The position numbers were made by a program, and so were the translations under genes. Shown here piece by piece: positions 1-57,947 of a stretch of 64,000 nt of DNA. Position 1 is the first letter of the stretch. Every line of letters starts with the position of its first letter. Source of the DNA: Eledone cirrhosa (lineage: Eukaryota); assembly GCA_964016885.1 (NCBI GenBank), contig OZ024740.1, forward strand, positions 123,380,001 to 123,444,000. Direction: 5' to 3'. The notes under the pieces are model-generated. The model was not told where the DNA came from and made no database searches. It saw only the letters and a program-made list of their open reading frames with translations.

Positions 1-2359
1 CTCTTCTACTGGCGCTGATTGGCTGAGCTGAGCCAAATCACGCACGTGAGCCCGCGGAATGTAGGTCACTACATCACCTCCGAGCAGATTTTCAGCCGAA
101 AATCGTTAATGATGAAGCCGAGGACCCACAGATTATTGAATCAGCAAGAACAAATGCTGAAAGAGCACATCAGTGAAAAAATAATTGAGCAGAAAGATGC
201 ATGCAAGAAAAAAAAATGAGGCGCGACGGGCCGTGTTGAACCGCTGTCAAATGACTAGCTGTTTTGTAGTTTATACGTGACCACCAAAGGTCTACCAGAA
301 AACAGATAAAGTCTGACATTGGCGAAGTTGCTGTTCTTGCATTAAATGTTAATGGTAAGTGTTGTACCAGTAGCTGTGGACGAAGCTATGGTGGTAGTTT
401 ACCAGTGCTGGCAAGAAGATGATGGGTAGGCGAGAAAATGTTGGCCTCCCAGATGTATTGCCGAATGTGCTAGGGGGCCAGGAAAAAATGGCTGGTTGCT
501 TTGATAAGAAAAAAAGCAAGCTGAATCTGTAGGTGGGTTGCAGTCCCACAATTCGGGCGAATCCACAGAAGTGGTGGAAATGCTGACAAGTCCAGTTCTA
601 TTTGTTGTTTTCCCGGTGAGTTGGGTAAGATAACAAGATAGAGGTTGTTATGGACGATGAATATGCAACGAGATGCGAAACTGTTTGAGTTCAGCTGCAA
701 TTAGCATTCTCGTGTTGCGATGCAGGTGAATTAAGCTGCAAGTGTCGATAGCATGTTTTGGTACCTCTAGAAGGTGAAAAGAGATCTCGCAGAATATTAC
801 GACGCTTGAAGATCGCATACCATAGACAACAACATGTTGGTGTGTGTATATATGCAGGCATGTAATACAGCAAAGAAAATGTGTGCGTGCGGTCACATAT
901 ATAATGATAGAGAGAAATGAATTTTCATATAATACAGTTTTAAACAAATAAATCTCCAAAATAAATTCCTGAAACAAAAGGAAGAAAGAAAGAATTGTTT
1001 CTTTTCTTTTAACAAAAAGTCCGCTTCTGTTTTCTTTGGGATCGATCTTACTAGGAAGCTAGTAGAGTTGTTGTTGTTAAAGCAAAGTCACAATGAATCT
1101 TCTGTAGAGTCGAAGTCTAGCGTTGAAGAACCTATAGTCACCAACCTGGCAGCCACGTCTGACGCCATAATGGTGAGAAAACTAATGTCTTAATTTCTCG
1201 AGTCCTTGTGGTAACGAGACAGAAGATATGGTGGTTGCGTCGGTAAAGTTACAAGCCGTTTCCTGGTGTTGGTTAATAGTTAGTCATGTTTTGCTGATGA
1301 TGGCTGGTACTTGGTGGTAGCGGTTTTGAAATTTCCTCGTGGCGTAAAGTTTTGGAAATACTGCTAATTTTTTCTTTTATTTCTAAAATATTCTAAAGAA
1401 AATTTGAATAATAAAAAAAATTATTTTCTATGAAAATTATTCGCAAGAAAATCCAAGATGGCTGATTCAAAAATGAAGAAGCCGTCATGTGGCACGGTGC
1501 AGCCAATAAGACGGCTGGGATTGGAGAAGACAAGCTGTACGCGGGAAAACAAAATTCCTGAGTCTCCATTTGTAATTTCAACAGAACGCCGAAAGCAAAA
1601 TTCCACATCCAGAGAAATCCTTTTTTTTTTAATTAATTTTTTTTGTTGTAATTTTGTGTTCGTCTGTATGCGTGAGTTACTAGTGTTACCATGAAAGTTA
1701 TGACAGAAATATTGTGCAGGTCGCGTGCTTCAACAAGTGGAATATTATGAGTGTTATGGACTTATGCTAAGTGAGTCTAGCTACCCGATTCGAACATTCC
1801 AAATGTTAAGCCACTCTACATTGCCATTAAAACGAATGGCGAATTCAAATAGGCTGCGTTTTCATACTTAATCGTCGAGGGTCGCCAATTTTGTGTAGGT
1901 AGTGTATTTGTCACCAATTTAGCGGAGAAGTATTTAGAGAGTTGTAATGTCGCCACGAGGAACCAGGTTTGGTAGAAAGATATGATAGGAATATCGACAA
2001 CGACATTAGCTTGGTTTTACATTATTTATTAACAGAGGTTGAGCTGGCATGCCAAGAGAAATAAAACAAATCAATTAAGATTACAAGAGAAAATACGGTC
2101 GACTGGCTGAGGCGTTTAGCCATTTCCGTAGTAAAATTGTTGTGTCGTTACATATTGTTTGTGCTGGCGGAGCAAAAGAACAAGTGGTGTTTACGTTAGC
2201 ACGGTCTAGATGGAAGTGATAGCGTCCTCAAATCTTTGCGGGCTATTTCTCCCTCAGAACGCGTAGGGATACATCCTCTTCTACTGGCGCTGATTGGCTG
2301 AGCTGAGCCAAATCACGCACAGAGAATGTATGTGAACCCGCGGAATGTAGGTCACTACA
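1..2359 (-). mobile_element. Non-autonomous Gypsy-type LTR element, copy A (3' LTR runs off window start)
   Basis: Direct repeats 1-73 and 1918-2359 both end ...GGTCACTACA (minus-strand start TGTAGTGACC). On minus the LTR is followed by PBS-like TGGTGAC.. (1911-1916) and TGGCGACCCTCGACG (~1873-1887). ~1.8-kb internal region has no intact ORF and matches 51293-53024 in reverse orientation. Confidence 0.9.
1918..2359 (-). repeat. 5' LTR of copy A (~440 bp)
   Basis: Homologous to 50839-51291 and 53039-53491; starts TGTAG on minus; PBS follows directly. Confidence 0.88.
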
Positions 2360-2510
2360 TATATAAACATACGATCTTTATAAGATGTACAAGATTAAAG
2401 TTTAGCACAGCTTCTTTTCTCTTACGTTTTCAAATATATGTCTTGAGTTGTTTTTTGACTGTATGGTTTGGGTCATTTCCGTCATTTCTAAAGTAAGGGA
2501 GACATATATA

Positions 2511-13529: not shown

Positions 13530-14445
13530 ATGAGTCCTGGGGGCAGTCCTCAAGCACGCTTTCCAGTGGGTGCTGTCAGAAACAACCGTCTCCAATTGAT
13601 CCAGATTGATAGCCAAGCGAGACCAGCCGTGCTCATGGATGTTGTCTAACCAACTTGTTCGGAGTCTAACACTGGGTCTGTTGTCGGTTGGTTTTTCCCG
13701 TAAGATATGTCTAGCTATTCGTTTGTAGTTATATATATTATAACTACACATTCGTAATATCGGAGCTGTCATCACTCAATTCGGAGATGTAGCGGTCTTC
13801 TTGGAACAATTATCTGGTCTCGGGACTACATATTCTATCAAGTAACATTGCTCCCACGACCCTTCGGAAGAAACCCATTCCGGCCACTTTTATTACCCAA
13901 GATTCATGACCAGGGATAAGGTTGACCCGAATAAAGAATTGAAGATGAGTTTAGCTTTTATACCCACCACCCCTCTTCTGGTGGCGGATGGCTGCAGCTC
14001 GCTTATTACTGCAGCCCACCTGCAATTCTTGCACTTATTCAGCCTCACAAAGTCAATAACTCGTGAACACAGCCTCGAGAGCTTCAACGTCTCCACCAGT
14101 TTTAGTGGAAATCCACTCACACGTGATGTGCATTGTGTAGGCTTCCTAGCGTGCATATCATACCTGCCGTGTATCTCACGCCATCAAACCTATTAAGTGC
14201 ATGACAAAGATCACCTACAGACGAGTTAAGTAGAACCATGGCATCAGCAAATTCCAGTCGACTGTTCCTACACACTACTGTCTTGATACCAATTCCAGCC
14301 CGGCTGCGCAATTCAATCCTGCCCATAAAGATTATGAATAGAGGACGTGAAAATACGCACCTTTGGCAGAGTCCGACACCCACATTGAATGGTTTTGATA
14401 TAGCACCATTTATCGGAACAAATATACAACAGCATTTGTATTTAG
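13530..14445 (-). mobile_element. RTE-clade LINE (Rex3/Expander-like), decayed 3' portion
   Basis: VGVGLCQRCVFSRPLFIIFMGRI..SRLEFADAMVLLNSS..DL (RT core); RPSVRLRTSWLDNI..GWSRLAI..LETVVSD..W (C-terminus). Confidence 0.82.
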
Positions 14446-14694
14446 ACATGTATGTGAGAAGGAGAGTCTGCGTTTTACCGTTATTTTTTACGTCTTTGTC
14501 TTATCCGCCCCATTTTGACTATATATATATATATATTCTAACCCCAAATCTAGCCCAATCCCCACTAACCACCCTAACCTTCGTGAAGTACGGTTAACCA
14601 AAAAACGAATTTTCATCGGTTTTAAAAGTCAGATTTATTGAAATAGCAAAGAAAACTCCGTGAATTAGTTTCCATTTTCTAAAAGGAAGATTTG

Positions 14695-15017
14695 GAGGTC
14701 TGATGAAAGAACCTAGAGAAACGTCTCCCCGAACGGCAGACGGATGTTTTTCTATAAATTTACCTATATATTTACCGATAATGAACTGCTTTTGAATATG
14801 TATAAGTTGTCATCTTTTGAAAATCTCTTGTTCAGCCAAAACAGACATGTTTTACAATGTTTTTCCCGTTTAGCCACCATTTTCAAGAAATATATTTGGT
14901 ATGAAATATATTGAGATATTTAATTATTTCTGCTTTAACTAATTTGTGAGTTTTTTGTTATCAAAATGTTTAAGTGAACAACAAAAGCAATTATTAAACC
15001 TTGAAAATAATTTCCTA
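14695..15017. repeat. Repeat unit U4 partial (duplicated at ~15846-16168; resumes ~19056-19285 after the Penelope insertion)
   Basis: ATGAACTG..TAAGTTGTCATC..ATCTCTTG..AAAACAGACAT..TTTAGCCAC matches U2/U3; 19056-19285 matches ~8283-8340 plus 9866-10080. Confidence 0.7.
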
Positions 15018-15095
15018 TATATATATATATATATATATGAAATTGAAAAAGTGAACAATAACATGGTCAACAGTATAAACAAGGAAATTTCTTTA

Positions 15096-15201
15096 CAGTC
15101 TAACAATTGTTTCTATGATAGAGTTGTGTAAAAATTGCTAAACACTGAAGTTAGTGTCAATTTAAAAGACATGCAACCTCCATCATTTCGTCAGAGAACT
15201 G
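15096..15201 (-). ncRNA. Type I hammerhead ribozyme of the Penelope-like element (duplicated copy)
   Basis: Minus: CAGTTCT-CTGACGA-aATGATGGAGGTTG...CAACTCTATCATa-GAAA-CAATTG-TT-AGACTG. Intact core, long stem II, palindromic minimal stem III, stem I with one bulge. Confidence 0.75.
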
Positions 15202-16246
15202 AGAAAAAATACAAAATATATGCGTAACGGTAAATTTATAAATTCAAATTACTACATCAATAATAATATTAATAATAAAGATATAGAGAGAAATAAATGA
15301 AGGGGGACAGATGGAAAAGAGGGGGAAAAAGAACAACGAAAGAGAAAACGAAAATACAGTTAAATGCAAATTCCGGCAAAATTACGAAATCAAACTATCA
15401 CATCAAAATAAAGATAATATTAATAATTGTTTCTACTTTTTGGCACAAGGCCAGCAATTACCCAGTGCATTACTGGTACTTTATTTTTGAATAGAGGACG
15501 TGAAAATACGCACCTTTGGCAGAGTCCGACACCCACATTGAATGGTTTTGATATAGCACCATTTATCGGAACAAATATACAACAGCATTTGTATTTAGAC
15601 ATGTATGTGAGAAGGAGAGTCTGCGTTTTACCGTTATTTTTTACGTCTTTGTCTTATCCGCCCCATTTTGACTATATATATATATATATTCTAACCCCAA
15701 ATCTAGCCCAATCCCCACTAACCACTCTAACCTTCGTGAAGTACGGTTAACCAAAAAACGAATTTTCATCGGTTTTAAAAGTCAGATTTATTGAAATAGC
15801 AAAGAAAACTCCGTGAATTAGTTTCCATTTTCTAAAAGGAAGATTTGGAGGTCTGATGAAAGAACCTAGAGAAACGTCTCCCCGAACGGCAGACGGATGT
15901 TTTTCTATAAATTTACCTATATATTTACCGATAATGAACTGCTTTTGAATATGTATAAGTTGTCATCTTTTGAAAATCTCTTGTTCAGCCAAAACAGACA
16001 TGTTTTACAATGTTTTTCCCGTTTAGCCACCATTTTCAAGAAATATATTTGGTATGAAATATATTGAGATATTTAATTATTTCTGCTTTAACTAATTTGT
16101 GAGTTTTTTGTTATCAAAATGTTTAAGTGAACAACAAAAGCAATTATTAAACCTTGAAAATAATTTCCTATATATATATATATATATATGAAATTGAAAA
16201 AGTGAACAATAACATGGTCAACAGTATAAACAAGGAAATTTCTTTA

Positions 16247-16352
16247 CAGTCTAACAATTGTTTCTATGATAGAGTTGTGTAAAAATTGCTAAACACTGAA
16301 GTTAGTGTCAATTTAAAAGACATGCAACCTCCATCATTTCGTCAGAGAACTG
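16247..16352 (-). ncRNA. Type I hammerhead ribozyme of the Penelope-like element
   Basis: Same sequence as 15096-15201; same strand as and 3' of the PLE ORF. Confidence 0.75.
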
Positions 16353-16578
16353 AGAAAAAATACAAAATATATGCGTAACGGTAAATTTATAAATTCAAAT
16401 TACTACATCAATAATAATATTAATAATAAAGATATAGAGAGAAATAAATGAAGGGGGACAGATGGAAAAGAGGGGGAAAAAGAGCAACGAAAGAGAAAAC
16501 GAAAATACAGTTAAATGCAAATTCCGGCAAAATTACGAAATCAAACTATCACATCAAAATAAAGATAATATTAATAAT

Positions 16579-16760
16579 TGCTTCTACTTTTTGGCACAAG
16601 GCCAGCAAATACCCAGTGCATTACTGGTACTTTATTTTCATAAGGATGAAAGGCAAAGTTAACCTCGGCGGGATTTGAACTCAGAATGGCAAGGGCCGTA
16701 ACTCTATGCGTCAAAGCATGGCGTCCGACCCTCTACCGATACTGCCAATCCACCGCCATC
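16579..16760 (-). mobile_element. tRNA-derived SINE inserted in the PLE 3' region, 15-bp TSD
   Basis: GATAATATTAATAAT at 16564-16578 and 16761-16775; same family as 12984; partial copy at ~15422-15487. Confidence 0.9.
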
Positions 16761-32097: not shown

Positions 32098-35032
32098 TAT
32101 CATCATCATCATTTTACGTCCGCATTTGCCTGCTTGGGCTGGACCGGTCCTATTCAGCACAGCATCTCTCCACTTGTCACAGTCCTTCATCATCTCCTCG
32201 GTGAGTTTCAGTAATCTGAGGTCTGCTCTCACCACCTCCGCCCATGTTGTTTTTAGGTCTACCTCTACTGCGTCTTCCTTCTACTGGGATTTCTTGGCAC
32301 TTCTTTACCCAGCGGTCATGCTCCATGCGCATTATATATCTATACCATCTCAGCCTACTCTTCTGCACACTACAACTTATCCCTCTTATATCCAGTTTCT
32401 TTCTCAACTCGTCCATGCTCGGTCGTTCACACACATTGACATTGCACATCCAAACCTAGCATACTTGCTTCATTTCTCTCCAGCTGTTGCATATCCTCTG
32501 CTGTTGCTGCCTATGTCTCACTACCATGCAGCATCGCTCATCTCACGCAGGCATCATATAACTCTCCTTTCATATAACTCTCCTTTCATATGCAGGGAGA
32601 AACCCTTCTTTGTCAACAAAGGAAGCAGCTCCCTAAACTTCTCCCAACCCGTCCTTATTCTAGATACTATGGCCTTGGAACACCCCTTCCCATGCTAATC
32701 TGATCTCCTAGGTACCGGAAGCTATCAACCACTTCTATAGAGCCTACCTGCATTGGAAAAAATGTGTCTATCACTGAAATTAATACTGCCAACTTTCCCT
32801 GTAAATCAACTGCATACATAGTGTTCCCTACCTGTTAGTTTGCCTGCTATCCCACTACATCACTTGTGTACCCAAGATCAGCATTGCGTACATTTAATGG
32901 AATTTATGTCAGTACCTTTCCTACATATCGAACATGGCCATTTCCCTGATGGAATCGGAGTATTGTCCTATCTTCTACTTATCAACACTTTTGTCTTAGC
33001 TATGGTCACTCTCAGTCCTCTTGATTCCAACTGCTGTTTCCATAGCCAGAATTTATTCTCTAGCTCCTCTACTGATTCTGCTATAAGAGCCAGATCATCA
33101 GCATAGAGAAGTTCCCATGGGCATCCAGTCTTAAACTCCTCTGTTATGGCTTGGAGGACTATAATGAACAAGAGCGGGCAGAGGACCAAAACCTGATGTA
33201 CACCTACTTGTATCTGGAATTCCTCACTAAACTCCATACCTACTCTCATTTTACTGAGAGCATCCCTGTACATAGCTTGCACCCCTGTACATAGCTTGCA
33301 CTGCCCTCACAAGCCATTCCTCTACACCTAGTTTCCTTAGGTACCAGCAGATGACAGATTGGGGTACCCTATCAAAAACCTTCTCTACGTCAACAGAAGC
33401 TAAGTATAGTGGCTTATTCTTCTCTAGGAACTTCTCTTGTAGTTGCCTCACTAAGAAGAGAGCATCTGTTGTACTTTTCCGAGACACAAAACCAAACTGC
33501 ATCTCATCTAATTTGACTCTTTCTCTAATCAGTTGCGCTAATATTCTCTCTGACACTTTCATAACCAGATCCATCAGCTTTATGCCCTATAGTTGCTCCT
33601 CTCTAGAGAATTCCCTTTACCTTTGTAGCAATTTATGAGAATACTGCTGCACCATTCTTTGGGTATGACACCACCATATATAGCTTGATTAATGATGCGT
33701 GCAACTAGTTTACTGCTTACTTCTCCTGATGCGTTCAGCATCTCAGCAACTATCCCTGACGGTCCAGCAGCCTTACCATTCTTTATTTCCTTAATTGCCT
33801 CTTGTACCCTATATTTGTCAATCTCAATAGCTTGTCCCTCTGTCGGGTCTACTAGGGGTAATTTCTCTCTGTCTCATTCGTTCTCCACATTTATCAGTCT
33901 CTCATAATGACATTTCCAGGCCTCCTTTTTTTGATCATTCATGACACTAAGTACATTGGCATCATTCCAGACACACTTATCTCCAACAACATCCTGATTT
34001 GCACTGACACACTGCCTTGCAATGCGGAACACCGCACGTCTCTGATCTTCCCGTCGCAAACATTGGCAAATCTCCTACTCTCAGCCTCCCTGCGTGCTAA
34101 GTACACCTGACGTCCGGCTTCTCTTTTAGTGGCTGTGTATCCTTCTCTACTCCCACCGTTTTTCCAAGCCTTCCATGCCAGTCTTTTGTCTCTAATGGCC
34201 CTATCTACCGTGCTGTTCCATCACCAGGTCACTCTCTGTCTGGTTGAAGCTCTGCCCCAACCACAAGTTCATTAAGTAGCCTGCAGTAAGTTGTCACGCA
34301 AGAAATTCCAGTTATCATCTATGTCATACAACTCTAAATCTTCTTTTTTTTCATCTTACACATCTTGAAGAGTTTTGCTAAATTTATATTTTAATGAAAG
34401 GTATTTTAGCTTCCAGACCTTTCTTTTCCACACCTTCCTGTATGTCTCATTCTTTCTCTTGCTTACTAATGATGTCATTAACGACTAACCTATGCTGTGG
34501 GGTACATTCTTCCCTGGGGTATGCCTTAGTATTTGACACCATCTGTCTGTCACGCTGTCTAACGAGCAGGAGGTCAATCTGGCTTGTGTGCTCGCCTGAT
34601 TTGTAGGTTATTAGGTGGTTAGTAGTCTTCTGGAAGTTAGTGTTGCAAATGGTTAGTGCATGTGCATCACAAAATTCAAGAAGCCTCACTCTTTCATTTC
34701 TTGAGCCATAACTGTGCCCACCATGTACCCCAGTGTATCCATCTTGGAGCTGTCCAACATGTCCATTGAAGTCCCCCGCTAGCATATCGATGTCTCAGTC
34801 CTCTGTCATTGAGGCTGTTTGTAAAAGTTGCTCATAAAAACAGTCTTTCTCTTCTTTACCTAGGCCTGCCTGGGGAGCATAGGCAGAGATGATTGTCAGT
34901 AGTCTCTTGCCTACAACTAATCTAAGCTTAATTCTATTACTAACTCTAACTACCTCTATTGTCTTATTGATCCATCTCTCAGCCAGTAATATGCCCACCC
35001 CACCTAAACCATCATCATTACCCACCCAGAAT
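32098..35032 (-). mobile_element. RTE-clade LINE, near-complete disrupted ORF, nested in the CR1-like element
   Basis: APE motifs GVGIL, IISAYAPQ, AGDFNGHVG, SQID; RT ELLYADDLALIA; 3' tail GCGGACGTAAAATGATGATGATG. Confidence 0.95.
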
Positions 35033-49989: not shown

Positions 49990-52900
49990 ATCAGCGATCA
50001 AGTAAACGTAGATGAGATGCAATTTGGTTTTGAGTAGGCTGGAGATATGACTGATGCAAACTTCCTTGTTTAATAATTGCAGGAGAAGTATGTAGCTAAG
50101 AGTAAGCCCCTTTACCCTGCATTCAGTGATATAGAAAAGGATTTTGACAGAAAGCCTTGCTCCATAACCTGGTTGGATCATTGGAAACTGAAGTTAAATA
50201 AGTGGCTTGTGAAGGCTATACAAGCTATTTACAAAGAAAGCAGTCAGAAAAGTGAGTTTGCAATAAAATGACCACCATGGCTCTGTTCATATCCCCCTTT
50301 TGTTATAGTCCTCAAGGACACGACGGGGAAGTTTAAGACTGGCATAATGCATGCATGATGGCCTAGTTAAATTCCCTGTGGAATTAGAGAAATTTCAGGC
50401 CTGGAAGCAAAGTCTGAAATCAAAAGGTCTCAGATATTCCTAGCCAAAAATAAAATCATATTAAGTTAAAAATTTGGCAGAACTCTGATACCACCAGAGA
50501 AATGACCATGCTCAATATTCAAAAAAGAAGCTGGTTGAAATTGTATATAGTTCTTCCTATATTCTGTAAAGGAAGACCTGAGAAAACTTAGTGATGAAGT
50601 GATAAAAGTTGACCTTGTCCAATTAAACCACACAAAGGAGATGGCACAGGATCGAGACCTCGTGTCATTCTGTACTGTAGAATAATCATCCACCACCACG
50701 TACACAAAGTGAAATGAAACTGCTGATTCAATAATCTGTATCGACTTCCGTCTAGAAGGGGGGGGGGGGTAAACTGTACCTTGTGGGTCCTTGGCTTCAT
50801 CGTTAACGATTTTCGGCTAAAAATCTGCTCGGAGGTGATGTAGTGACCTACATTCCGCGGGCTCACATACATTCTCTGTGCGTGATTTGGCTCAGCTCAG
50901 CCAATCAGCGCCAGGAGAAGAGGATGTATCCCTACTCGTTCTGAGAGAGAAATAGCCCGCGTAGATTTGAGAAATCAAAGACTCGCAGCTTGACCATACT
51001 AAGGTAAACACCACTTGTTCTTTTGCTCCGTAAGCACACAAAATATGTAACAACAAAACATTCCTACGGGCCTGGCCAAACGCCTCAGCCAGTCGACCGT
51101 ATTTTCTCTTGTAATCTTAATTGAATTATTTCATTTCTCTTGGCAGGCCAGCTTAATTCAGTTCTTAACCTTTGTTAATAAATTATGTAAAAACAAGCTA
51201 AAGTCGTTGTCGATATTCCTATCATATCTTTCTACCAAACCTGGTTCCTCGTGGCAACATTACAACTCTCTGAATATAACTCCCTGTTAAATTGGTGACC
51301 CTCGACGATTAAGTATGAAAACGCAGCCTATTTGAATTCGCCATTCGTTTTAATGGCTATGTGGAGTGGCTTAACATTTGGAATTTTCGAATCGTGTAGC
51401 TAGACTCACTTAGCGTAAGTCCATACAATTCATAATATTCCATTTGTTGAAGCACGCGGCCTGCACAATATTTCTGTCATAACTTTCATGGTAACACTAG
51501 TAACTCACGCATACAGACGAACACAAAAATACAACAAAAAAAAAATTAATTAAAAAAAAAGTATTTCTCTGGATGTGGAATATTGCTTTCGGCGTTCTGT
51601 TGAAATTACAAATGGAGACTCAGAAATTTTGTTTTCCCGCGTACAGCTTGCCTTCTCCAATCCCAGCTGTCTGATTGGCTGCATCGTACCACATGACGGC
51701 TTCTTCATCACAGACGCATTTTTAAATCGGCCATCTTGGATTTTTGTGCCGAATAATTTTCATGGAAAACAATTTTTTTTTATTATTCAAATTTTCTTTA
51801 GAATATTTTAGAAATAAAAGAAAAAATTAGCAGTATTTCAAAAACTTTTCGCCACGAGGAAATTTCAAAACGGCTATCACCAAGTACCAGACATCAGCAG
51901 CAACACATGGCTAACTATTAACCAACACCAGGGAACGGCTTGTAACTTGACCGACGCAACCACCATACCTTCTGTCTCGTTACCACAAGGACTCGAGAAA
52001 TTAAGACATTAGCTTTCTCACCATTATGGCGTCAGACGTGGCTGCCATGTTGGTGAGGCTAGGTTCTTCAACGCTCGACTTCTACTCTACAGAAGATTCA
52101 TTGTGACTTTGCTTTAACATCAACAACAACTCTACTAGCTCCCTAGTAAGAGAGTTCCCAAAGAAAATAGAAGCGAACTTTTTGTTAAAAGAAAAGAAAC
52201 AATTCTTTCTTTCTTCCTTTTTTTTCAGGCATTTATTTTGGACATTTATTTATTTTTTTTAAACTGTATTATATGAAAATTCATTTCTCTCTATCATTGT
52301 ATATGTGACCGCAGGCACACATTTTCTTTGCTGTATTACATGCCTGCATATATACACACACCAACATGTTGTTGTGTATGGTATGCGATCTTCAAGAGTC
52401 GTAATATTCTGCGAGGTCTCTTTTCACCTTCTAGAGTTACCAAAACATGCTATTGACACTTGCAGCTTAATTCACCTGCATCGCAACACGAGAATGCTAA
52501 TTGCAGCTGAACTCAAACAGTTTCGCATCTCGTTGCACATTCATCGTCCATAACAACCTCTATCGTGTTATCTTACCCAACTCACCGGGAGAACAACAAA
52601 TAGAACTGGACTTGTCAGCATTTCCACCACTTCTGTGGATTCGCCCGAATTGTGGGACTGCAACCCACCTACAGATTCAGCTTGCTTTTTTTCTTATCAA
52701 AGCAACCAGCCATTTTTTCCTGGCTCCCTAGCACATTCAGCAATACATCTGGGAGGCCAACATTTTCTCGCCTACCCATCTTCTTGCCAGCACTGGTAAA
52801 CTATCATAATAGCTTCGTCCACAGCTACTGGTACAACTCTTACCATTAACATTTAATGCAAGAACAGCAACTTCGCCCATGTCAGACTTTATCTGTTTTC

Positions 52901-54133
52901 TGTTAGACCTTTGGTGGTCACGTATAAACTATAAAACAGCTAGTCATTTGACAGTGGCTCAACACGGCCCGTAGCGCCTCATTTTTTTTCTTGCATGCAT
53001 CTTTCTGCTCAATTATTTGTTCACGTCGGGTTCACCAATTTAGCAGGGATTTATATTCAGAGAGTTGTAATGTTGCCACGAGGAACCAGGTTTGGTAGAA
53101 AGATATGATAGGAATATCGACAACGACTTTAGCTTGTTTTTACATAATTTATTAATAAAGGTTAAGAAGTGAATTAAGCTGGCCTGCCAATAGAAATGAA
53201 ATAATTCAATTAAGATTACAAGAGAAAATACGGTCGACTGGCTGAGGCGTTTGGCCAGGCCCGTAGGAATGTTTTGTTGTTACATATTTTGTGTGCTTAC
53301 GGAGCAAAAGAACAAGTGGTGTTTACCTTAGCATGGTCAAGCTGCGAGTCTTTGATTTCTCAAATCTACGCGGGCTATTTCTCTCTCAGAACGAGTAGGG
53401 ATACATCCTCTTCTCCTGGCGCTGATTGGCTGAGCTGAGCCAAATCACGCACAGAGAATGCATGTGAGCCCGCAGAATGTAGGTCACTACAAAACAAACA
53501 GGTAGGGGAGACACTAGCCTGCAGCAATGCGCCATACCCTACCTAACTTAATACCTCGATCACACCTATATATCCCATGCACCTAATCAATGTCAAACTC
53601 ACTCACCTGTCCCCCCCCCCCCACCGCACCAACAGTCATGATACACCTCACCTGCCCAGGCTATGAAAGCTAGACACACTTGACATCTTACCTCCAACAA
53701 AACCATGACAAAACACAAAATCTGTAATGTATGCTGATCTGGCAGCACAAAAACAAAATCACCCAATCCTTCCTGTAAAGTGATGGTGCTGGTGACATGA
53801 CAAAGCGCCTAGTCCAAATTGCAAGATGGTTGTGTTGGTGACACAACAAAAACACCCAGTCCACTTTGTAAAGTGGTGATGCTGGTGATTTGACAAAAAG
53901 TGCCCTGTTCACCCTTAAAGGTGATTGTTTTGGTGCTACAATGAAAAAAAACACTCAGTCCACACTGCAAAGTACTTGGTGTTACAAAGGACATCCAGCC
54001 ATAGAATCCAAGGCAAAATACAAATAAATATGAGCAAACAGTTATCTCTGAACCTGACTTGTTTCATAATGTGACTACCCATCTAACCAATGCAAGCATG
54101 GAAAATAGACATTAAACGACAATGATGATGATG
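49990..54133 (+). mobile_element. Old internally deleted RTE LINE split by LTR copy B (49990-50720 and 53492-54133)
   Basis: DEMQFGF, LQEKYVAKSKPLYPAFSDIEKDFDR before the insertion; ~43-bp UTR repeats (53690-53990) and (GAT)n tail after it, matching the layout of 41300-42041. Confidence 0.82.
50721..53491. mobile_element. Non-autonomous LTR element copy B with inverted LTRs and AAAC TSD
   Basis: AAAC at 50717-50720 and 53492-53495; 3'-internal piece 50721-50838; LTR(+) 50839-51291; PBS from 51293; internal to ~53024; tRNA-Trp-like 53021-53037; LTR(-) 53039-53491. Confidence 0.92.
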
Positions 54134-55729: not shown

Positions 55730-57947
55730 ATGACAAGATGAGATTTTTAGATCTACAGCTAATAAATGGAATTTCTTACGTGACAACTTGCTGCAGGCTA
55801 CTGATGAAACTTGTTGCTGGAGCAGAGCTCCAACCAGACAGAGAGTGACCTGGTGGTAGAACAGAACAGTAGATAAGGCCATTAGAGACAAAAGACTAGC
55901 ATGGAAGGCTTGGAAAAAGGGTGGGAGTAAGGGAGAATATACAGCCACTAAGAGAGAAGCTAGACGTCAGGTGTACTTAGCACGCAGGGAGGCGGAGAGT
56001 AGGAGGTTTGCAAATGTTCTGCGATGGGAAGATCAGAGGCGTGCGGTGTTCCACATTGCAAGGCAGTGTGTCAATGCAAATCAGGATGTTGTTGGAGATA
56101 AATGTGTCCGGGATGATACCGGTGTACTTAGTGTCACGAATGATCAGAAAAAGGAGGCCTGGAAATGTCATTATGAGAGACTGATGAATGCGGAGAACGA
56201 ATGGGAGAGAGAGAAATTACCCTTAGTAGATCCGACAGAGGGACCAGCTATTGAGATTGACGAATATAGGGTCCAAGAGGCGATTAGGGAAATGAAAAAT
56301 GGTAAGGCTGCCGGACCATCGGGAATAGTTGCTGAGATGCTGAAGGCATCAGGGGACGTAGGCACTAAACTGGTTGCAGGCATCATCAATCAGGCTATGT
56401 ATGGTGGTGTCATACCCAAAGACTGGTGCAGCAGTATTCTCATAAATTGCTACAAAGGTAAAGGGGATGCTCTGGAGAGGAGCAATTATAGGGGTATAAA
56501 ACTGATAGAACAGGTTATGAAAGTGGCAGAAAGGATATTAGCACAACTAATTAGAGAAAGGGTCAAACTAGATGAGATGCAGTTTGGTTTTGTGCCTGGG
56601 AAGAGTACAACAAATGCCTCTTCCTGGTGAGACAATTGCAAGAGAGGTTCTTAGAGAAAAATAAGCCACTATACTTAGCCTTTGTTGACCTAGAGAAGGC
56701 CTTTGATAGGGTACCCTGATCTGTCATCTGGTGGTCCCTAAGGAAGCTAGGTGTTGAGGAATGGCTTGTGAGGACAGTACAAACTTTGTACAGAGATACT
56801 CTCAGTAAAGTCAAGGTAGGAATGGAGTTTAGTGAGAAATTCCAGATACAAGTAGGTGTACATCAGTGTTCGGTCCTCAGCCTGCTCTTGTTCATTATAG
56901 TCCTCCAAGCCATAACAGAGGAGTTTAAGACTGGCTGTCCATGGGAACTTCTTTATGCTGACGATCTGGATGTTATAGCAGAATCAGAAGAAGAGCTAGA
57001 GAATAAATTCTGGCTATGGAAACAGCAGTTGGAAGCAAGAGGACTGAGAGTGAACCTAGCTAAGACAAAAGAGTTGATGAGTAGAAAAGAGGACAAAACC
57101 CTGATTCCGTCAGGGAAATGGCCATGTTCGATATGCAGAAAAGGAACTGGCATAAATTCTATAAAATGCACACAATGCAGATCCTGGGTACACAAGAGAT
57201 GTAGCAGGATAGCAGGTAAACTAACAGGTAGGGAGAAATATGTATGCAGTAGATGTACAGGGAAATTAGACAGTAGAAGTCGCATTGATAGACACATTTT
57301 TCAAATGCAGGAGGGCGCTATAGAAGTGGTGGATAGCTTCCGGTACCTAGGAGATCAGATTAGCATGGGAAGAGGGTGTTTTCCGAGGCCATAGTATCTA
57401 GAATAAGGACGCGTTGGAAGAAGTTTAGGGAGCTGCTTCCTCCGTTGACGAAGAAGGGTTTTTCCCTGCGTACTAAAAGCCAGTTGTATGATGCCTGTGT
57501 GAGGAGCGCGATGCTGCATGGTAGTGAGACATGGGCAGCAACTGCAGAGGATATGCGACGGCTGGATAGAAATGAGGCAAGCATGTTCCGTTGGATGTGC
57601 AGTGTAAATGTCCGTGAACGACCCAGCATAAATGTGTTGAGAGAGAAACTGTGTCTGAGAGGGATAGAATGTAGTGTACGGGAGAGGAGACTGAGGTGGT
57701 CTGGACATGTGATGCGCATGGAGGATGACTGATGGGTGAAGAAGTGCCAGGAAATGCTAGTTGAAGGAAGACGTGGTAGAGGTAGACCACGAAAAACATG
57801 GGCGGAGGTGGTGAGAACAGACCTCAGATCATTGAAGCTCACGTTGGAGATGACGAAGGACCGTGATAAGTGGAGAGATGCTGTACTGAATAAGACCCGT
57901 CCCACCCTTGCAAGCAGGGAAAAGCGGACGTAAAATGATGATGATGA
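55730..57947 (+). mobile_element. RTE-clade LINE, 5'-truncated; same family as 32098-35032
   Basis: ORFs 55971-56630, 56768-57394 (ELLYADDL), 57376-57732, 57736-57933; tail GCGGACGTAAAATGATGATGATGA. Confidence 0.95.

Follow-up and report, generated by a model that had tools for sequence, protein, structure and literature searches.

An inverted-LTR retrotransposon insertion in Eledone cirrhosa, an apparent fossil of aberrant reverse transcription

DIRS-1-like retroelements carry inverted long terminal repeats (LTRs) as the norm and use a tyrosine recombinase instead of a DDE integrase (PMC3950715). Inverted terminal repeats are likewise the family norm in the pseudo-LTRs of Penelope elements. 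Here, we describe an insertion with two inverted LTRs at positions 50717-53495 of a 64,000-nucleotide (nt) stretch of the Eledone cirrhosa genome (assembly GCA_964016885.1, contig OZ024740.1, 123,380,001-123,444,000 of the forward strand; below, the window, whose coordinates are used throughout). Unlike DIRS-1-like and Penelope elements, the family to which it belongs has direct LTRs, a DDE integrase, a PBS (primer binding site) as well as target site duplications (TSDs); the inverted form is a one-off accident. The CsRn1 clade, which this family resembles, is marked by a tRNA-Trp PBS, a 4-bp TSD, LTR ends of the TGT...AAA or TGT...ATA type and a CHCC Gag (PMC2582038); CsRn1 elements are common in cephalopods (PMC6238403). 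We consider it probable (about 0.72) that the window copy is a single dead insertion that arose when tRNA-bearing plus-strand strong-stop DNA primed antisense synthesis on a sense template, the product being integrated via its U3 end and an internal CA.

In Ty1 and Ty3, strong-stop DNA that carries tRNA sequence is displaced and leads nowhere, and the PBS is not inherited from the tRNA (PMC5371799). The family studied here likewise keeps a degenerate PBS; unlike in Ty1 and Ty3, the tRNA-bearing strand was apparently extended and integrated in the germ line, and its tRNA copy is 17 nt long rather than 12. In HIV-1 (human immunodeficiency virus type 1), 1-methyladenosine at tRNA position 58 (m1A58) is where copying halts, which restricts the copy to 18 nt (PMC8599865). 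Strand-transfer errors and inverted viral DNA are also known from aberrant retroviral integrations and defective proviruses (PMC5041404, PMC9278108), HIV proviruses with rare inversions among them (PMC9278108). The window copy shares these traits, but in the retroviral cases a bad end was joined by the host, leaving a long duplication or deletion, or one LTR carries deletions. In the available text of PMC5041404 and PMC9278108, two full inverted LTRs together with a tRNA copy and a TSD of normal length do not occur. The wider literature returned strand-transfer errors and aberrant integrations and no integrated inverted-LTR product with a tRNA copy, within a coverage that leaves out most older subscription papers, in which retroviral errors of strand transfer were originally reported.

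The inverted-LTR layout is real: base-level alignment and self-alignment of the window agree with the original prediction, which had been made from the letters of the window, in every coordinate (Table 1). The self-alignment returned an inverted repeat, 50839-51307 against 53491-53024, at 97.9% identity. Positions 50721-51291 are colinear with the 3′ end of an intact family copy (L033; loci retrieved from the genome carry L numbers) at 97.2% identity. The part of this segment that precedes the left LTR contains a G-run at 50754-50769, adjoins the LTR with GGAGGTGA and starts with TG, which is CA-3′ on the minus strand, i.e., a cryptic end. In L033 coordinates, the internal sequence stops at 2445 and the left end resumes at 2472, 26 nt being missing; minus its right arm, the element is a one-LTR unit that is circularly permuted and opened at one spot with loss of these 26 nt. 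Read along the minus strand, it is one continuous strand composed of LTR, tRNA copy, antisense internal sequence, PBS, LTR and 118 nt. About 4.9 kb of gag-pol, present in copy L037, is missing, and no frame of at least 150 amino acids was found within the element. A G at 53019 is private, being seen in 1 of 27 copies. The window also holds a second family member, copy A, which had been taken for a normal direct-repeat copy; it is one, on the minus strand, and in the extended locus (L031) both LTRs are present with a TATA duplication.

Searching the genome with the family LTR yielded 1,462 candidates, of which the best 40 were scored; among these, LTR pairs at 2-7 kb spacing are in direct orientation, with the window copy as the sole exception. 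Family LTRs and both window arms run TGTAG...GCTAAA. The normal U5 end of the family is AA (right end AAA) and not CA, a correction to the original prediction. Exact 4-bp TSDs flank 10 of the 12 whole family copies tested. The 7.1-kb copy L037, full-length but frameshifted, has an LTR 93% identical to the family LTR and encodes RVP, RVT_1, RT_RNaseH, Integrase_H2C2 and rve domains in this Pfam order, which is that of protease, reverse transcriptase, RNase H and integrase (PR-RT-RH-IN); the RVP match (20.5 bits) is just below the cut-off. A frame of L037 carries the CHCC Gag motif C-x2-H-x9-C-x3-C, and the window copy has no gag. Flatworms and Octopus bimaculoides are among the named relatives of the family integrase. 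The tRNA-Trp PBS, the 4-bp TSD and the TGT...AAA ends are those of the CsRn1 clade (CsRn1, PwRn1, AgCR), as are, via L037, the CHCC Gag and the domain order. On these features, the window copy is classed as a gene-less derivative of an abundant CsRn1-type Ty3/Gypsy family. It departs from the clade in its lack of genes, its inverted LTRs, its single non-LTR end and its PBS, which is present in two different versions.

Two peculiarities of the family were seen in passing. About 70 extra nt separate its G-run polypurine tract from the LTR (window 50754-50838); in sister subfamilies the tract directly precedes the LTR, although the TG at which copies start is the same in all. In many copies, U5 has grown in both LTRs by at least one unit of TTGGTGAC followed by ca. 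12 nt and CCAAA; such growth, in which PBS-like pieces appear to have been captured into the LTR, occurs in copy A (window 1890-1915) and in L035, L070, L212, L238, L271 and L279.

The insertion interrupts an old host repeat, the paralogs of which display the empty site. With either flank, 38 loci were fetched; 25 rows, corresponding to 22 distinct loci, matched both flanks. At 14 of the 22 the site is readable, and all 14 (three of them near-identical to one another) have two 4-mer units and none has three, versus three in the window; the other eight have local deletions or align poorly at the site. Since AAAC is already doubled in the empty paralogs, proof of the TSD lies in the comparison of three units with two. 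The predicted AAAC duplication thus stands as a 4-bp duplication, while the single AAAC expected in an empty allele does not. No host sequence was lost and no filler was added. The original prediction took this repeat for an RTE 3′ UTR; in its DNA, the left flank is 67% similar to a stretch of the window that immediately precedes an RVT_1 frame.

The two arms differ at 8 of 453 positions (1.8%; 98.2% identity), against a median of 1.9% among 16 normal 5′/3′ LTR pairs. In a tree of 70 LTRs (the two arms and 68 others; bootstrap values not fully settled), they are sisters at 100/97 support. Four letters are common to both arms and occur in 0 of the 68 other LTRs, in line with the earlier claim that the two LTRs share diagnostic sequence; at three of the eight sites where the arms differ, the letters are found in none of the 68. 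Sister arms, private letters and a divergence typical of normal pairs point to one copying event. We conclude that one insertion event, with a TSD of the family type, is supported.

The sequence that links the right LTR to the internal region is a 17-mer. Host tRNA-Trp genes end with TCACGTCGGGGTCA in 10 of 11 inspected, the remaining one having A at position 70, and once CCA is added, the 17-mer matches tRNA-Trp positions 76-60 at 16 of 17 letters, better than the element's own PBS does, as had been predicted. It includes the CCA, which tRNA-Trp genes lack. The family PBS pairs with tRNA-Trp by nine straight matches, a 1-nt bulge and five more matches, with its 3′ end unpaired. This degenerate PBS occurs exactly at 37 places of the genome and in all 14 other 5′ LTRs inspected among the top LTR matches. 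The tRNA-type PBS after AAAT was inspected at all of its 52 places in the genome and is joined to a family LTR at two, the right arm and L130, both rearranged; in L130 the family LTR is followed by 33 nt of tRNA read-through and then by host DNA. A degenerate family PBS and a rare tRNA type indicate that inheritance of tRNA sequence is not the norm in this family.

Dozens of tRNA-Trp genes, including the A70 variant, stand in tandem arrays at C4:353394904-353483044 and C4:277407662-277440858 (L113, L114). Two amplified families (L084, L282, L288, L290, L299, L310, L312 and L319; L115, L123, L126, L151 and L315) have PBS regions that can pair with 25-33 nt of tRNA-Trp and thereby reach far beyond position 58. 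As a member of one of them, with a long PBS, L084 was dropped as a one-off read-through, and L092/L132 was dropped as a mis-transfer product, being a regular sister subfamily with a tRNA-perfect PBS.

At the inner joint, the 17-mer and the internal sequence overlap by the 4 nt TCAC, one letter fewer than the TTCAC first proposed. Among ca. 1,800 internal positions in intact copies, the left end of the element lies 26 nt from this putative priming site, without overlap, and such proximity of two points would arise by chance in roughly 1-2% of cases; the spacing favours one, circularly permuted, template. TG dinucleotides make up 5.7% of internal positions, which is the background for a CA end. 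The left end coincides exactly with the 3′ arm of a stem-loop, TCAGCA-N8-TGCTGA, which is present in 22 of 26 other copies and, with a different loop, in 26 of 29 sister-subfamily loci; a comparable stem is found at only 1-3 of 100-122 internal TG sites. An exact 4-bp TSD together with the CA end argues that integrase joined both ends, which we regard as probable and which supports the earlier claim that a cryptic internal CA end was used. Host-joined ends in HIV usually come with much longer duplications or deletions (PMC5041404).

The following order of events would account for this anatomy. The first minus strand would have copied U5-R, U3 and ca. 120-140 nt of 3′ internal RNA and then stalled or run off a break. 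Plus-strand strong-stop DNA made on it would have copied 17-18 nt of the tRNA, giving a 3′ end that cannot pair with the degenerate PBS of the family. Once displaced, this DNA could have used TCAC as a priming site on what was left of the RNA, its 5′ fragment, and been extended back to the PBS. From here, two routes lead to the same sequence. By the first, toward which we lean slightly, the left LTR and its 118-nt extension would be the retained first minus strand, which ran off the 3′ fragment, and both strands would have come together at the PBS, much as they do during the second transfer of a normal cycle; an RNA break within the 26-nt gap would be the simplest account of the close spacing. 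By the second, put forward in the original prediction, there would have been a second pass through R with the normal jump. The extension would then have been made double-stranded, possibly by snap-back at the 6-bp stem-loop, and cut at the CA beside the loop, and integrase would have joined both ends 4 bp apart. Of the mechanism first proposed, a right arm composed of LTR and tRNA-Trp-like copy that meets antisense internal sequence through microhomology, the single insertion and the internal CA end are supported, and the R-to-R jump becomes one of two routes.

A number of points weigh against, or weaken, the mechanism set out above. The mismatch at 53031 turns the 17-mer into TGGTGAACCCGACGTGA, which sister subfamilies that have other LTRs carry as their regular PBS, and no tRNA-Trp gene with the mismatch letter (U at position 70) was found in any of the 41 places inspected. 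Intact family members with the 17-mer as PBS had been named as what would refute the prediction; sister subfamilies have it, and intact copies of this family, at the places inspected, do not. The 18th letter of the tRNA is absent from the copy. By pairing energy the priming site ranks only 8th among 13 TCAC sites. The stem-loop was noticed post hoc and folds only weakly (z -1.6). Neither LTR end is well imitated by the cryptic end, which is no hot spot: 0 of 29 copies inspected, out of 93 other matches, end there. The second R-to-R jump is one of two routes only, and a broken RNA with a stalled minus strand fits equally well or better. The individual steps were derived from the layout, the TSD, arm kinship, the 16/17 match, the 4-nt microhomology and the 26-nt gap. 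Finally, in Logan contigs of runs X1-X3 (one sample) and restriction site-associated DNA (RAD) reads of X4 and X5, the inner junction (53024-53039) is spanned by no contig or read, with depth 0 at 53028-53033 in all four runs, and no contig is listed across the left junction. Such a hole is no proof of absence and is not specific, as other single-copy words inside the LTR ends of the element are likewise missing; the inner joint is given by the assembly.

In a rival explanation, the 17-mer came from the PBS of a co-packaged sister-subfamily genome, through a template switch within TAAATTGGTGA, and not from tRNA. This would be the same kind of accident, and we consider it unlikely. The 17-mer matches the PBS of at least two sister subfamilies at 17 of 17 letters, with 21 other places after AAAT and more elsewhere; no tRNA gene has the mismatch letter; and L125 and L274 show that different genomes are co-packaged. 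On the other hand, two switches 17-27 nt apart would be required, and the right LTR is free of sister-family letters. Single-letter drift in the PBS is, moreover, common: variants of the adjoining position occur at 34 places, and of the 30 inspected most are in PBS context, so a chance point change at 53031 would be ordinary. For the same reason C-to-A at PBS position 7 was dropped as a systematic change. A PBS search that allowed one mismatch gave exact matches throughout the best 100 of its 752 rows. A shade less likely is one-ended integration or break repair, in which the right U3 end was joined by integrase, if by anything, while host enzymes stitched the cDNA together and joined its left end. 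This is known in avian sarcoma-leukosis virus (ASLV) and HIV, where a bad end joins further viral DNA in either orientation (PMC5041404), and the left end here resembles neither LTR end. It is at odds with the exact 4-bp duplication, the CA end and the lack of filler or host loss relative to the 14 paralogs, and it does not explain the circular permutation with its 26-nt gap.

An assembly or library fold-back artefact is very improbable, even though inverted repeats in a high-copy family and an inner junction uncovered in Logan contigs speak for it. Fold-back gives identical arms, and the arms here differ at eight sites; neither a tRNA-type 17-mer nor a 4-bp TSD is created by it. In addition, X1-X3 contigs are identical to the window over the left flank, and at the right junction they run from the flank into the inverted LTR for 27-29 nt (slightly short of the 31-letter rule), with the right arm's own letter. 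Least probable of all is rearrangement after insertion, either of two opposite copies or by inversion or conversion of a normal or tandem copy. The family is abundant, and the tandem three-LTR copies L142 and L271, in which a middle LTR is shared, offer the order 3′-internal, LTR, PBS. However, no single inversion of a normal copy yields the observed order, so a simple inversion was rejected on anatomy; a single TSD and four private letters in common are not expected of two insertions; and the limits of a repair tract would have to coincide exactly with the TSD and with the 3′ end of the PBS. Rearrangement is strongly disfavoured by the empty-site paralogs and the LTR tree. Some element types were ruled out altogether. 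Autointegration joins LTR ends to an internal target, and the inner joint here connects the 3′ end of a PBS, not an LTR end, to internal sequence. A canonical integrated LTR element has neither inverted LTRs nor internal sequence at its left end, and a DIRS-1-like origin is incompatible with direct LTRs and an rve integrase in the family.

The check for whether the layout is unique or amplified had a twofold outcome. The layout itself has not spread: none of 39 other loci with internal-region matches (the best 40 of 1,278 candidates, including the window element) runs past 53024, and no other family LTR carries the 17-mer (41 of 41 places inspected). The kind of accident recurs in sister subfamilies. 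There is thus no sign of a self-propagating inverted-LTR subfamily, and what we see is a recurring accident and not a new element type. The sister loci were found by targeted searches, from which no rate can be derived. In L125 (C4:286917000-286922600), two inverted arms from different genomes are joined near the 3′ internal region, giving two U3 ends and an exact TSD, TACG; the switch point is 39 nt from the window priming site. L275 (2486-5217) consists of a whole copy and, after it, 195 nt of U3 in inverted orientation; both of its ends are U3, and its TSD matches at 3 of 4 positions. In L131 and L274, a tRNA copy is followed by an inverted LTR piece. L270 (2953-5896) and L276 (3239-4938) are head-to-head with no usable TSD, which again does not favour our reading. 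Read-through of 30-50 nt into the tRNA is present in L130, L133, L097, L277 and L304, and L133 and L144 have a change or a one-base gap at tRNA position 58, as reverse transcriptase leaves at m1A58.

Further loci were noted in the course of these searches. In L277 (2811-4325), ca. 50 nt of tRNA read-through is joined to U3. An LTR followed by 30-45 nt from mature tRNA-Trp is found in L130, L133, L097, L144, L274, L304 and L311; in L133, the tRNA copy is followed by a return to the LTR, of which the final 12 nt are repeated.

As for the window copy itself, it shows no sign of function or spread, and its value is that of a record. If priming by tRNA-bearing strong-stop DNA is the right account, the strand that yeast Ty1 and Ty3 discard can undergo extension and become fixed in the germ line of an animal, and a Gypsy integrase needs no U5 end to produce a normal 4-bp duplication. 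Taken together with the sister cases, it would allow the way in which an unstudied Gypsy clade replicates to be tested by genome census alone. A wider reading, which we offer only tentatively, is that CsRn1-type elements here use a Ty1/Ty3-like scheme, that the discarded strand can resume synthesis on a wrong template close to a fragile spot of the 3′ untranslated region, and that integrase takes U3/U3 or hairpin-opened CA ends, giving rise to a class of inverted-LTR fossils. Were this true, the order of reverse transcription steps, the modification of the primer tRNA and the tolerance of integrase for ends could be deduced for a clade that has never been the subject of biochemical study. Software built to find pairs of direct LTRs would overlook such copies or call them DNA transposons or DIRS elements.

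Table 1. Parts of the inverted-LTR insertion, its flanks and the comparison copy, in window coordinates.
Feature	Position	Strand	Basis or remark
Old host repeat, left of insertion	50570-50716	+	78-88% matches genome-wide; joins right flank in paralogs
TSD, left copy (AAAC)	50717-50720	+	Empty-site paralogs: two units vs three in window
3′ internal sequence (118 nt), normally preceding the 3′ LTR	50721-50838	+	Colinear with L033
Left LTR (TGT...AAA), sense	50839-51291	+	Base-level alignment, LTR tree
Degenerate PBS of family type, TGGTGACCCTCGACGAT	51293-51309	+	Alignment to tRNA-Trp
Non-coding internal region, sense, without gag-pol	51310-53024	+	Colinear with L033 to its position 2445
Microhomology TCAC (4 nt), common to internal sequence and tRNA copy	53021-53024	+	
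Putative copy (17 nt) of tRNA-Trp 3′ end, positions 76-60, CCA included	53021-53037	-	Mismatch at 53031; tRNA-Trp genes in L113, L114
Right LTR, inverted; U3 start (TGT) faces host, the normal outer U3 end	53039-53491	-	
TSD, right copy (AAAC)	53492-53495	+	Empty-site paralogs
Old host repeat, right of insertion	53496-53800	+	Continuous with left flank in paralogs
Copy A, normal direct-LTR family member used for comparison	1-2360	-	3′ LTR runs off left edge of window

Elsewhere in the window, a tandem duplication of ca. 1.15 kb with 99.4% identity occupies 14332-16638 and is either recent or due to assembly overlap. Positions 32100-34315 and 55762-57947 hold opposite copies (86%) of a LINE-like element, and the frame at 56720-57394 matches RVT_1 followed by a PHD finger.

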